Position numbers and translations under genes: made by a program. Below, piece by piece: positions 4,286 through 62,752 of a stretch of 64,000 nucleotides of DNA. Positions within the stretch are counted from its first letter, which is position 1. Every line of letters begins with the position of its first letter. The notes below the pieces were generated by a model. It did not search any database. It was not told the DNA's origin and saw nothing but the letters and a program-made list of their open reading frames with translations. The stretch is from Octopus vulgaris. Its lineage: Eukaryota. The stretch covers positions 16,864,001 to 16,928,000 of the forward strand of contig OX597821.1 in NCBI GenBank assembly GCA_951406725.2, in the 5' to 3' direction.

Positions 4286-4474
4286 GGAAGCACTCCGTCG
4301 GTTACGACGATGAGAGTTCCGGTTGATCCGAATCAACGGAACAGCCTGCTCGTGAAATTAACGTGTAAGTGGCTGAGCACTCCACTGACACGTGTACCCT
4401 GAACGTAATTCTCGGGGATATTCAGCGTGACACAGAGAGTGACAAGGCCGGCCCTTTGAAATACAGGTACAACA
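4286..4474 (-). mobile_element. SINE family C 3' part
   Basis: gcactccgtcggttacgacga..gatccgaatcaacggaacagcctgctcgtgaaattaac recurs inverted at 7925-8012 and again at 62979-63044. Confidence 0.65.
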
Positions 4475-5245
4475 GATTTGCATCATTGTCTCGGACCCAA
4501 CAACTCGAGAAATACGCCTTCAAGACGTCAAAAAACACTATTACAACGCCAATATCCCTCCACACTCATATACTATGGAATAAAACGTGCCAAGGAACTC
4601 AACAATAACACACTGAAAACCACCCAACACAGTAACTTACCGAACCTCAAAATACCTCCATACATTTCCACCCACAACCCCCAAAATATCGGAGCATACA
4701 CCACAATCATACAAAACCTCCCCTTACTATCCATGGACCCAAAAAATGAATAATATTATCAATACACATAAAATCCTTAAATGCAAAAGGCAACATAAAT
4801 CATTGAAAAAACTCTTAACAAATGCCAAACTTCACACTACACATCCAGCCCATCAGTTAAAAAATGTGTACGCCCTAACTGTGGTGTCTGCCCCTTGAAG
4901 GCTCTGAATTTACTTTCAAACAAGGAACAAAGTTTAAAATCAAGACCAATTTCGCTTGTTCCTCCGAGAACCTCATTTACGTCCTTACATGCGCATGTTG
5001 CCAACGCAATTATATTGGACAGACGAGCCTTCCTTTACGCAGAAGAGTAGTAGTCCATAAAGAACAGATAAATCTCCCACAATACTGTCAAATTCCACTC
5101 AGTAGCTACATAGAATCTTGTGCTAGAAATAAAAATCCCAAATTCCGTGTATTCCCTTTCTATCAATGGGAAGACAAAATCTCTACACAAGAAAGAATCA
5201 ACTAGGAGAATCATTTTATTGAAAAATTCCAAACGCTTCTTAATA
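4475..5245 (+). pseudogene. Penelope-like element relic: RT thumb/linker and GIY-YIG endonuclease
   Basis: Frameshifted translation gives LLQRQYPSTLI..GIKRA, KKCVRPNCGVCP and NLIYVLTCACCQRNYIGQTSLPLRRRVVVH (GIY-YIG). Confidence 0.85.
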
Positions 5246-5787
5246 TACAAACTCCACGGTGACTGTATTCCTTTTTCTAGCATCTTGTTTGACAAAAAAT
5301 AGATATAAGCAAAATTCCAGCATTCCAAATAAAGAGTAAAAAATCCACAGAATTTTCTCCCCTAATTCACAGGAACTGGATAACTCCGACCTCATTTCTT
5401 GTTTTGACACATAAACATCCATCCTTCTCAAACAAAACACTACACTAAAACACATGCACCCTAATCCTCCAAAGATGTTATCTATGGAATAATATTGAAA
5501 TTTAAAAGCATAAAGATACTAGAATGTATTGGTATACTTACTTATTAATTTTCGTGTATATTTATTATCTTTTTGAAAAAACATTGTAAATGTTTTTCCT
5601 TTTCCTCATTTAAAAAAATGTTTTCCCCTTTCAAATCTTGAAATTTGCCTTGCCATGAAAGCCGGTTTCCCGGTCGATTTCCATTTTAAAATTTTTATTA
5701 CACCCATTTATATTAAAATTTACCTTCAATTTAGCATTCAACCGTATCATTATCATTTTTCCTATATATATACACATATATATATAT

Positions 5788-40185: not shown

Positions 40186-41556
40186 ATGAAGGGAAATTAC
40201 TCTGTCTCTAAAGAACTGCTAGATAAAGCCATAATCTTCGCTAGTGACTTCATAGAAATTAGTACCAATGATAAGGATATAATCTTCCATGCTAGAAAGA
40301 CATTACTTTTCAGTGAGAATGCAAAGTGGGTAAAAAACACCGACACGGAGGGCGCTTTCGATGTGAGCATGGGTTCATACGATGGGGCAGGCATCTGTGA
40401 TCTAATTGGACTCTTTCTCCTAGATACCTTCAGTAAGACATTCCCTAACGTACATTTCGCCATCTACAAAGATGATGCCCTCGCCTTAACAGCTAATACA
40501 AATGGACCAGCACAAGATCGTTTTAGGAAGGATATTATCCAGTTAATGAAACACTTCGGACTTAGTATAACTATAGACACTAACCTGACGGTTGTCAATT
40601 TCTTAGACGTTTCCTTAGATCTTAATAATAATATTTATAAGCCTTATAGGAAGCCCAATGATAGACTAAGTTATATTAATGTAGGTTCATGCCATCCCCC
40701 TATAGTATTCAAAAATTTAGTTAAAAATATTAGTAAGAGGATTTCTAGCCTCTCATCTAATGAGGACATCTTCAATAGCGTTGCCCCAGTTTATAATAAA
40801 GCTTTAAAAGATAGTGGTTTTAGCGAAAAAATAAAATATACACCTATCACCAGCCCAACAATAAGGAAAAGGAATAATAGAAATAGGAAGGTCATCTGGT
40901 TTACGCCCCCTTACTCACCCGAGGTGGCCTTCAATATAGGTAAATATTTCCTAGCACTGATAGATAGACATTTTCCAGTTAACCATGCTTATAGGAAACT
41001 CTTCAATAGACACAATTTAAAAATTAGTTTTAGTTCAACTACCAATTTTAAAAACATAATCAATCATAACATACAAAAAACACAAGAAGAAAACAGCTGT
41101 TCATGCAGGAATAAAGAATTGTGCCCGCTAAATGGAGCTTGCATGTCCAAGACCATCATATATGAAGCTACCGTAAACTCTATAACCACTAAAGACACCG
41201 TTTCGACGAAGAAATACGTGGGCCTGACAGAGGGTAATTTCAAGGCCAGGTTCAATAACCACACTTTGAGCTTTAGGCACTGGAACAAAAGAAAAGCGAC
41301 ACAATTATCCAATCATATTTGGTCTTTAAGAGATAAAGGTGTCGATTATAACATACAATGGAAGATTTTGGCCAGATGTAAGCCCTATACTAACGGCAGC
41401 GGAAGGTGCGGTTTATGCGACATGGAGAGATGGCTTATCTGGAAAAGCAGCTTAGACCCTACCACATGTCTAAATACAAGGACAGAGCTTTTCGGATCAT
41501 GCCCACATGTGACTAAATTTCTGTTACGTTTTTGGTCCCCTAAAGAAAACGGATAG
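40186..41556 (+). CDS. Penelope-like reverse transcriptase / GIY-YIG endonuclease, N-terminally truncated (456 aa)
   Basis: MGSYDGAGICDLIG, YKDD, VNFLDVSLDL, SCHPP, CSCRNKELCPLNGAC and IIYEATV..KKYVGLTEGNFKARFNNH. RT motif A is missing and the ATG comes from the inverted pLTR. Confidence 0.85.
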   Translation: MKGNYSVSKELLDKAIIFASDFIEISTNDKDIIFHARKTLLFSENAKWVKNTDTEGAFDVSMGSYDGAGICDLIGLFLLDTFSKTFPNVHFAIYKDDALALTANTNGPAQDRFRKDIIQLMKHFGLSITIDTNLTVVNFLDVSLDLNNNIYKPYRKPNDRLSYINVGSCHPPIVFKNLVKNISKRISSLSSNEDIFNSVAPVYNKALKDSGFSEKIKYTPITSPTIRKRNNRNRKVIWFTPPYSPEVAFNIGKYFLALIDRHFPVNHAYRKLFNRHNLKISFSSTTNFKNIINHNIQKTQEENSCSCRNKELCPLNGACMSKTIIYEATVNSITTKDTVSTKKYVGLTEGNFKARFNNHTLSFRHWNKRKATQLSNHIWSLRDKGVDYNIQWKILARCKPYTNGSGRCGLCDMERWLIWKSSLDPTTCLNTRTELFGSCPHVTKFLLRFWSPKENG

Positions 41557-55183: not shown

Positions 55184-55223
<40 letters not shown>

Positions 55224-55226
<3 letters not shown>

Positions 55227-56002
55227 TAACAATATAGGGTGAAATTAATTAATTTGGAATAATCATTAATTACACCAAGTAGATCTCGGCATGTAAAAGC
55301 CTCATTCGAAGAAAGTTTAAGTAATACTAAGTAATTAAGGGTTTAGCAACGAATTGCCTCACCACACACCGAATTTAGAAATAGCAGTCAAATAGTTATA
55401 GCTATTATTTCTACTAAAAGGGAGATCCCAGTAAAAACACAGCACTTGAAACGCAAACACAGACAGGTAAGAGAGAATGAAATGACGGCAATCTATCATA
55501 CACTTTTAAGTCACCTACGGACGTACGTTTCGAAATTAAGTTTTAGGAAAGCATAAGAATTAGATAATCATGTCTTACCCAACTTCTTTTCTCATCAGCG
55601 TAGGACACTACAATTATGAATAATTGTATATTAAATTTCGAGATACTAGAAGGCATCATCTCAACTCAGTATCAGAGCGAGCTAAAGCCGTTACCAGTAT
55701 CACCAAATTCAAAGTGTGAATGAAAGTTTGTGTCACCAACCCCTTCCCACCCGCGTGTAGCCAAGACAAGATGCTGTGGTCATTTACTGGGATGAAATAT
55801 GGTTATCAGTAACAATATAGGGTGAAATTAATTAATTTGGAATAATCATTAATTACACCAAGTAGATCTCGGCATGTAAAAGCCTCATTCGAGGAAAGTT
55901 TAAGTAATACTAAGTAATTAAGGGTTTAGCAACGAATTGCCTCACCACACACCGAATTTAGAAATAGCAGTCAAAGAGTTATAGCTATTCTTTCTACTAA
56001 AA
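55224..56002 (-). mobile_element. Retrozyme-like / PLE-derived non-coding element: 583-bp unit with a 196-bp terminal direct repeat
   Basis: 55224-55419 is nearly identical to 55807-56002. Central HHR, (TA)n flanks and no ORF. Confidence 0.8.
55514..55604 (-). ncRNA. Canonical type I hammerhead ribozyme (GUC)
   Basis: CCTACG-CTGATGA-GAAA..TTTC-GAAA-C(GTAC)G-TC-CGTAGG. All core nucleotides match and stem I has 6 bp. Confidence 0.85.
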
Positions 56003-56041
56003 TGTATATATATATACATATATATACATATATATATATAC

Positions 56042-60219: not shown

Positions 60220-60258
<39 letters not shown>

Positions 60259-60362
60259 GATCAAACTACAAGGGAAATTCTCTAGAGGAAGAATTCAGCG
60301 AACACCAGAACCAACTTTGGCGAGCACAGGACATATGAAAAATTAAATAAATAACAGACTTA

Positions 60363-60438
60363 AATGCATACCTCGGTTTCGGTCTTAACAAAAGAATTAC
60401 TTGCATAATTCAAGTGTCCGTGACTTCATCAGTACATT
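60363..60438 (-). ncRNA. Type I hammerhead ribozyme (GUA), copy 1
   Basis: AATGTA-CTGATGA-aGTC..GACc-GAAA-CC(GA)GG-TA-TGCATT. Confidence 0.75.
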
Positions 60439-60908
60439 CGGTCCTCGAGATGCAAACCGCAAGACTAACCCCAGCTCTCTGTGTCAAGACAGACACGTGC
60501 TTAGTCTTACTGATTACATCGGGAATAAAATTTCAAATGTCTTGGTTCTGGCGCGCTGAGAGACTCCTGAAGCGAAGGGCTGCAGTGAATAATTCACTGC
60601 GGGTAGTGCTTACAACTAGGGAACGTATTTATTTAAATATTTAAAAATTGAGGGAGATAAATTAATATTAATTTTAATATCAATTTAAAACCAGTAGTCC
60701 AGCATTCAAAAAATCTGAGGAGTCAGAGAAAATTCAAATATATGTGTATATTGGCAGGGCTGGCCTGCTAGGTAGCCGGCCAGAATGCTAGAAGAAGATC
60801 ATCAACGATCAAACTACAAGGGAAATTCTCTAGAGGAAGAATTCAGCGAACACCAGAACCAACTTTGGCGGGCAGGACATATGAAAAATTAAATAAATAA
60901 CAGACTTA

Positions 60909-60984
60909 AATGCATACCTCGGTTTCGGTCTTAACAAAAGAATTACTTGCATAATTCAAGTGTCCATGACTTCATCAGTACATT
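60909..60984 (-). ncRNA. Type I hammerhead ribozyme (GUA), copy 2
   Basis: Same fold as copy 1, 546 nt away. Confidence 0.75.
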
Positions 60985-61163
60985 CGGTCCTCGAGATGCA
61001 AACCGCAAGACTAACCCCAACTCTCTGTGTCAAGACAGACACGTGCTTAGTCTTACTGATTACATATTTGAATTTTCTCTGACTCCTCAGATTTTTTGAA
61101 TGCTGGACTACTGGTTTTAAATTGATATTAAAATTAATATTAATTTATCTCCCTCAATTTTTA

Positions 61164-61207
<44 letters not shown>

Positions 61208-61210
<3 letters not shown>

Positions 61211-61675: not shown

Positions 61676-61740
61676 ATGTATACATGTATTTGTATAAATA
61701 TATATTGATATGTATCTTGTGTCGTAGTGGAGTTATTACT

Positions 61741-61838
61741 CCAATAATAATAATAATAAACCACGCCAATAATAATAATAATAAACCACGCCAATAATAA
61801 TAATAATAAACCACGCCAATAATAATAATAATAAACCA
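61741..61838. repeat. Minisatellite, about four copies of a 22-25-bp unit CCAATAATAATAATAATAAACCACG
   Basis: Seen directly. Confidence 0.9.
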
Positions 61839-62143: not shown

Positions 62144-62218
<75 letters not shown>

Positions 62219-62223
<5 letters not shown>

Positions 62224-62752
62224 AAATAAGAAAATGGAGAAACACATCCTAATCAATGATCAGCTACCAGATAATACCCAATCACATAATTTATTAAACC
62301 ACTACATATGAACATTAAGATCAAACATAATAATATAGAACAAAACAATGTACATGAAAGAGTACCCACTATTGTATGGGTGTACCTCGTCTAATTTTCA
62401 TATTTAATTTAGTTTGTTCTTCATAATCTCTGAAGAGGCCTTGGGATATTTTTGTAAGTGTCTCATTTATAACTACATATTAACCTATCACACATGGCTA
62501 ATATGAGCATAATGAGGCACCCATATCTGCATGGCTGATGTAGTTTATATTTATATTTTTATTTATTTATATTCACTTATACATACTGTACTTATTGTAT
62601 CATATTACTCTTTCATGTACATTGTTTTGTTCTATATTATTATGTTTGACCTTAATGTTCATATGTAGTGGTTTAATAAATTATGTGATTGGGTATTATC
62701 TGGTAGTTGATCATTGATTAGGATGTGTTTCTCCATTTTCTTATTTTGTATA
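62219..62752 (+). mobile_element. Non-coding element with 146-bp inverted repeats and a decayed HHR in the spacer
   Basis: 62219-62364 is the reverse complement of 62606-62752. ATAATCT-CTGAAGA-GGCC..GGCT-GAtgt-AGTTTAT lies at 62423-62548. Confidence 0.7.

Follow-up and report, generated by a model that had tools for sequence, protein, structure and literature searches.

The octopus insertion described here belongs to a non-coding 546-bp family that is probably moved in trans by a Penelope-like reverse transcriptase (RT) and endonuclease, which would start at two priming sites and go round a circular monomer more than once; we give this reading a probability of about 0.6. Support for the circularity of the template is indirect and comes from copy-level patterns. 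Judged by sequence, the element has the features of both a non-LTR retrozyme and an element moved by Penelope-like elements (PLEs), barring the canonical 10.1–11.1 base pair of its hammerhead. How animal retrozymes spread and how the tandem and inverted insertions of Penelope elements originate are open questions (PMC7229834, PMC8557442, PMC11167929), and a young family with hundreds of 98–99% identical copies allows a quantitative test of the long-proposed circle-template model.

One copy of the family lies in the window, the 64,000-nucleotide stretch of DNA that was analysed. Monomer positions m1–m546 correspond to window positions 60914 down to 60369, from cut to cut. The features of this copy are as follows:

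60257–61166, no single strand: whole insertion, an 807-nt minus-strand arm and a 103-nt plus-strand arm joined 5'-to-5'
Long minus-strand arm of the window copy: 807 nt, from m396 round to m110, 1.5 units
61064–61166, plus strand: short inverted arm, m174–276, ending at E2; 103/103 match to 60639–60741
60369–60914, minus strand: predicted cut-to-cut monomer, 546 nt (m1 = 60914, m546 = 60369)
60909–60984, minus strand: upstream type I hammerhead, predicted cut between 60915 and 60914
60363–60438, minus strand: downstream type I hammerhead, predicted cut 60369/60368; A10.1·C11.1
60735–60750, minus strand: E1, m165–180, AT-rich; putative RT initiation site
60623–60653, minus strand: E2, m262–292, AT-rich; putative main RT initiation site
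60457–60514, minus strand: strong predicted hairpin, about m401–458
60224–60257, no strand: left (TA)n flank, target microsatellite
61169–61208, no strand: right (TA)n flank, target microsatellite

Anatomy and hammerheads of the window copy

A scan of the full window on both strands recovered two minus-strand motifs of type I hammerheads. Their starts are at 60984 and 60438, and A17 of the predicted cut sites lies at 60915 and 60369; both the pair of motifs and their 546-nt spacing agree with the first-pass annotation. The direct repeats that it put at ~262 bp span 60257–60519 (263 nt) and 60805–61065 (261 nt) and lie three substitutions and one 2-nt indel apart. Its view that the monomer holds no credible open reading frame (ORF) stands as well, the longest stop-to-stop frame entirely within the element being 97 aa and on the antisense strand, and the predicted monomer fold is better than those of shuffled sequences (z = −4.2 linear, −4.5 circular). 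(TA)n is present to the left and right of the element, as had been reported. The 103-bp inverted segment is indeed perfect, and can be refined: it is not arbitrary, ending at the main 3' terminus of the family, E2. The window copy is of the E2-plus-other type, with the short arm stopping at E2 and the long arm at m110, an atypical end.

Each window hammerhead comprises stem I (AAUGUA/UGCAUU), the core CUGAUGA...GAAA, stem III (A-CC-GA-GG-U) and the cut triplet GUA. Chance is not a plausible source of the motif, because a 26-nt hammerhead word has 330 exact matches in the genome and its reversed control has none. Rfam returned no hammerhead match, either at the gathering score or at E ≤ 10. Stem III had been thought suited to dimers, and folding prediction concurs: stem III (ACCGAGGU) is unfolded alone and self-pairs as a dimer (−6.6 kcal/mol). 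Hammerhead base pairs were counted from motif anchors; the MAFFT alignment shifted stem I out of register. Within the 546-nt family, position 7 (U/A) is the sole common core variant and the remaining core is intact; position 7 is described as the only variable core position of hammerheads (PMC2837043).

An older sister family (L154–L189 and L240–L269; about 70% identical, unit about 520–530 nt, at least 147 exact word matches) shares its ends with the young family and has a homologous hammerhead with a self-complementary stem III, and two insertions, L091 and L153, are intermediate between the young and sister families (87–91%). The sister hammerhead keeps the core and shows compensatory changes in stem I (U-A to C-G and A-U to U-A). 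Given that the core of the young family commonly varies only at position 7, and that in its sister the core persists while the changes in stem I are compensatory, we conclude from the sequences that the hammerhead of this family is under selection. Between two widely spaced inverted sister-family ends we recognized no PLE ORF.

The A–C mismatch at the base of stem II, which had been raised as a caveat, proved to be family-wide, with position 10.1 differing in 0/86 insertions and position 11.1 in 2/90. The canonical G10.1–C11.1 closing pair is thus absent from the young family, and is G-C in the older sister family, where 10.1–11.1 is paired in 24/24 copies (chosen by a core-plus-GUCC pattern). 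Since the sister family pairs these positions, the A·C is probably a derived change that became fixed during the expansion of the young family. A G-C pair at 10.1–11.1 has been called highly conserved (PMC4209133). The axolotl hammerhead HHR_Amex2 carries a U·U mismatch at the stem II base, where the 546-nt family has A·C, and still cleaves (PMC7229834); by analogy with Amex2, in which the mismatch is tolerated, we regard the canonical pair as a variant feature and not a strict class criterion. Our literature search found nothing on the effect of A10.1·C11.1 on hammerheads.

Folding predictions put the local cost of the active hammerhead fold at 2.6 kcal/mol. When the two-hammerhead transcript is folded to equilibrium, the stem I pair probability is at most 0.08; two active folds there cost 13–16 kcal/mol, as calculated for monomer folds. 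Retrozyme and PLE hammerheads in print are often weak (PMC4209133; bioRxiv 10.64898/2026.07.22.740005): only one of nine Xenopus retrozyme dimers cleaved in vitro (bioRxiv 10.64898/2026.07.22.740005), and for an anole PLE in vitro cleavage was dispensable, the main template being uncut RNA (PMC11167929). Contigs from four sequencing runs, presumably of RNA and possibly of DNA or intronic origin, cover most of the 546-nt unit.

Family size, insertion ends and coding relatives

The genome searched comprises 2.8 Gb in 227 contigs and is microsatellite-rich. Two further words from the unit have 457 and 371 exact matches in it, with none for their controls. Our unbiased sample takes in all sites listed for contigs C1 and C2 and for C3 up to 83.5 Mb, 69 in total or 68 without a segmental twin; an additional 38 sites are biased towards long copies and bring the whole sample to 107 sites (106 without the twin). 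The segmental twin (L115, of L114) was dropped from the end, junction, haplotype and variant counts, and L153 and L084 additionally from the recurrence and A>G analyses. The first-pass annotation had suggested counting genome copies; 68 sites in 525 Mb extrapolate to ~360 insertions, a lower bound. Full units are 97–99% identical and spread over many contigs, and the pairwise difference within insertions is 0.9%. Two complete hammerheads share one arm at 9/68 unbiased sites and 25/106 overall, as they do at the window locus.

The anatomy of the family is of the PLE type: 5' truncation, partial tandems, an inverted 5' arm, an optional tail and a microsatellite target. Together with several hundred copies at 97–99% identity and the lack of an ORF, such ends uphold the earlier description of a young, non-autonomous hammerhead retroelement with Penelope hallmarks. 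Outer 3' ends fall at E1 (about m177) in 58/167 cases and at E2 (about m278) in 86/167, together 144/167. Both main ends are far from the predicted cut, and the gap between them constitutes a tail of ~100 nt. A microsatellite lies within 30 nt of 158/167 outer 3' ends (a raw count, without a genomic background). The 5' truncations bunch around m440–464, near the strong predicted hairpin.

Inverted insertions make up 61/106 and pair the ends in a restricted manner: 42 are E1+E2, 15 are E2+other, one is E1+other and three have neither. None of the 61 is E1+E1 or E2+E2, and all 42 E1/E2-ended inversions have one end of each kind. In 13/37 two-arm E1/E2 insertions each arm extends outside the span of the other, which argues that the arms are mostly independent cDNAs. 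The same 13 rule out snap-back (fold-back) as the general origin of the inverted arm; it may account for some insertions, the arms beginning at most 12 nt apart in 7/37.

Features of PLEs include a tail, inversion, partial tandems and the targeting of (TA)n (PMC8557442), and the unit might therefore be no more than a pLTR belonging to a coding PLE, with copies that are extreme 5' truncations, an outcome that the first-pass annotation had named as contrary to its reading. The loci speak strongly against it. At none of the 107 family sites does a PLE ORF adjoin the unit at a fixed position; where PLE protein matches do occur nearby, hundreds of bases separate them from the arms and their position varies. 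The sequence upstream of a unit is a further unit, (TA)n or unrelated flanking DNA. Nor did the sampled PLE loci yield a pLTR homologous to the unit, the 20 PLE-flanking stretches among them showing no similarity above shuffles (150 of 6136 GIY-YIG candidates were scored, and a rare coding parent is possible). We consider a pLTR origin very improbable.

Coding PLEs are nonetheless at hand as candidate helpers. PLEs of several families occur in the genome. At least two are very young, with RT+GIY-YIG frames of 781 and 775 aa that are intact and many near-identical copies in (TA)n:

L220–L235 PLE (for example L233:1289–6535): very young; upstream 479-aa frame and 781-aa RT+GIY-YIG frame; 510-nt pLTRs, tail of about 35 nt
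L236 PLE family: extremely abundant; 76 scored copies, each 100% identical at the protein level; a 775-aa frame is open in many

In the two PLE families inspected tails are about 35 nt, against ~100 nt in the 546-nt family. By eye we spotted a U3-A8-type minimal hammerhead-like motif in the L220–L235 PLE. The L236 family includes some full-length tandems, and no canonical hammerhead is visible in its 3' region. A partner search with a motif from a long contig of the presumed-RNA runs gave no genome match. The window itself holds decayed PLE RT/endonuclease remnants at 4452–5250 (plus strand) and 40552–40962. A 546-nt RNA whose start sites have been mapped, together with several candidate RT/endonucleases that are intact in the same genome, would make a ready in vitro system.

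A third hammerhead family, unrelated to the others, has a 583-nt unit with a canonical type I hammerhead, a palindromic stem III and 544 exact genome matches. It too has a copy in the window:

55222–56003, minus strand: copy of the 583-nt family, hammerhead starting at 55604

Across 26 merged C1 sites the two ends of this family lie about 105 nt apart, and 12/13 inversions have one of each; as read from these sites, the family replicates the two-end, inverted layout of the 546-nt family. In a single case (L300, C1:155320500–155328500, minus strand) a 583-nt family arm stops at its own E1 site and abuts a co-oriented, 5'-truncated PLE ORF of the L211 type; this junction could be an RT template-switch chimera that hints at the helper, or a chance nested insertion.

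Template of the insertions

The lengths and junctions of the arms bear directly on the template. A linear cut monomer would limit arms to 177 or 278 nt; 101/146 E1/E2 arms run beyond the cut, and 25/146 beyond two cuts, which argues against such a template. A piling up of 5' ends at the cut, as a linear cut monomer would leave, was hinted at by a few copies and showed no enrichment thereafter: 1/90 unbiased arm stops fall within 3 nt of the cut (background 0.018), and 4/162 overall. Passes over the cut carry no indels (0/153) and 145/153 are exact. Arms span 0.05–3.9 units, with at most four hammerheads in one arm (107 sites), and their lengths fit an exponential (KS p = 0.11), arms above two units being scarcer than it predicts (3 vs 7.7).

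We also compared the copies within insertions. Scored polymorphic sites agree fully in 41/48 tandem arms and 42/48 arm pairs, as against 2287/14233 random pairs (16%); discordance at one or more sites is found in 7/48 tandem arms and 6/48 arm pairs. This scoring omits the recurrent sites 455/457 and a few indel-prone or homopolymer-adjacent ones. Variants private to one insertion and found in every one of its copies number 25, in 21 insertions, none of them CpG-type, while recurrence alone predicts about 0.1 (calculated on a slightly wider variant set). In L018, for example, two private variants are each present in 6/6 copies. Judging by these patterns, copies within one insertion behave as if they came from a single template molecule. 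The insertion-private variants coexist with 152 single-copy variants, which look post-insertional. There are 20 haplotypes in 38 long insertions, and for a mutation in a single unit to reach all units, or for an array to lengthen, the monomer has to be re-multimerised. No clean parent–daughter pair was found among the analysed insertions.

One double change departs from this concordance. 455T+457A (equivalent to window 60458–60460) is present in 19/127 passes, a count that leaves out five older-subfamily insertions; it is mixed in 12 insertions and fixed in none, and recurs linked, in single units and across many haplotypes, at the base of the strong hairpin. We infer an RT error made anew in individual passes over structured RNA, possibly arising from a template switch at the hairpin base. 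Template variants show no ADAR-type A>G excess (2/38).

Seamless multimers could also form without a covalent circle if an uncut linear RNA with terminal redundancy served as the template and RT made a homology-guided jump between its ends, in which case the hammerhead of the young family may be weak or act at another step. Such a jump likewise predicts neither scar nor stop at the cut, suits the A·C mismatch and the poor equilibrium fold, and matches the use of uncut RNA as the main PLE template in vitro (PMC11167929). It sits less well with a unit length fixed at the cut-to-cut 546 nt in every arm, with a hammerhead fold kept by compensatory changes across about 30% divergence, and with three unrelated or distant families that each have one hammerhead per unit. 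To our knowledge PLE RTs are without RNase H, which would make strand transfer harder than rolling. We regard a linear jump as unlikely, if the more serious of the alternatives.

Alternatively, the copies might derive from linear transcripts that read through long master arrays of tandem units, or the multimers might be a later product of unequal crossing-over or gene conversion at the inserted copies. A master-array, DNA-level route has been proposed for vertebrate retrozymes (bioRxiv 10.64898/2026.07.22.740005), multimeric transcripts exist in axolotl (PMC7229834), and DNA-level homogenization is a general trait of tandem repeats. However, no long master array was seen at the 107 sites, where arms hold at most four hammerheads, and the listed positions do not cluster (collapsed arrays are possible); moreover, each of the 20 haplotypes would require its own master. 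Gene conversion is opposed by private variants that are common to inverted arms and partial units beside the 152 single-copy ones, a coexistence that suggests two epochs rather than ongoing conversion. These routes appear improbable to us.

Rolling reverse transcription of a circle, the reading we prefer, would proceed in four steps. A locus with at least two tandem hammerheads would be transcribed, and dimeric hammerhead cleavage would free the 546-nt monomer, which a host ligase would close as in other retrozymes (PMC7229834). Having one hammerhead, the circle could not dimerise by itself and would hence be stable. A PLE enzyme would then nick both (TA)n strands and prime cDNA at E2 and E1, the ends being observed and the enzyme proposed after PMC11167929. 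Each cDNA would circle the same RNA with a near-constant chance of stopping, yielding 0.05–3.9 units, and the two would be joined 5'-to-5' by a presumed route into the inverted insertions that we observe. If transcription started upstream of the inverted arm, it would leave the monomer of the locus in a 103-bp duplex.

More tentatively, and at somewhat less than even odds, the insertions could be a fossil record of rolling-circle reverse transcription, in which a dimeric Penelope enzyme uses two fixed sites ~100 nt apart on a hammerhead-made circle and lays down one cDNA per target strand. The record would extend over at least three families (546, about 530 and 583 nt) without pLTR homology to a helper, and might explain the pLTRs, tails and inversions of PLEs generally.

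Relation to known retrozymes and PLEs

The family has head-to-tail, non-coding units and not the layout of LTR retrozymes. With the metazoan non-LTR retrozymes of Cervera & de la Peña (2020, PMC7229834) it shares tandem units that are non-coding and have a single type I hammerhead each, a GC content below 50%, a structured predicted circle and a weak stem III that needs dimers. The retrozymes described there are about 170–400 nt, form long arrays and have demonstrated circles, whereas the octopus unit is 546 nt, occurs in dispersed insertions of 1–4 units with fixed internal 3' ends and inversions, and has a putative circle. The same paper proposes that RT copies the circle into tandem cDNA and names PLEs as the likely mobilizer; PLE-driven copying of hammerhead circles has also been put forward in PMC4209133 and PMC7761336.

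Li, Clavereau and Pollet (bioRxiv 10.64898/2026.07.22.740005) present animal retrozymes as non-autonomous PLE derivatives. Their vertebrate retrozymes are of the same class as the octopus family, with a size range (51–972 bp) that includes 546 and with PLE co-occurrence. Their argument uses co-occurrence and pLTR homology and favours local tandem amplification, whereas ours uses insertion anatomy and within-insertion haplotypes; they find pLTR homology, in contrast to the PLEs sampled here, which have none to the unit, and molluscs are outside the groups that they list.

EN+ PLEs, including Anolis Poseidon PAc (PMC11167929, PMC8557442), resemble the octopus family in their partial tandems, inverted 5'-truncated arm, often one-ended tail, two internal RT starts and AT-rich or (TA)n targets. 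Experiments in vitro trace the PLE tail to RT starting at two internal sites, the nicking and extension affecting each of the two target strands (PMC11167929), and by analogy the E1/E2 two-end pattern is the PLE tail. EN+ PLE tails are 30–40 nt (PMC8557442) as against ~100 nt here, and the octopus unit is ORF-less with a larger, canonical-type hammerhead. Chlamys non-autonomous PLEs, such as MRC1, are likewise non-coding, multicopy head-to-tail elements that use PLE machinery; as described in PMC8557442, however, that clade is without canonical hammerheads and its elements have 3' sequence in common with an autonomous partner.

The retrozyme class and the circle-template model are thus already in print, and the copy-level insertion evidence is apparently new: a literature search over titles and abstract openings, with little coverage of subscription papers and supplements, found neither the 546-nt family nor such evidence.

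Two further repeats lie beyond the right flank of the window copy. At 61738–61837 there is a 25-bp tandem repeat of about four copies with AAT runs inside, and 62218–62364 and 62606–62752 form a 147-bp inverted repeat (99%) with (TA)n to its left, which is MITE-like or an inverted PLE end.
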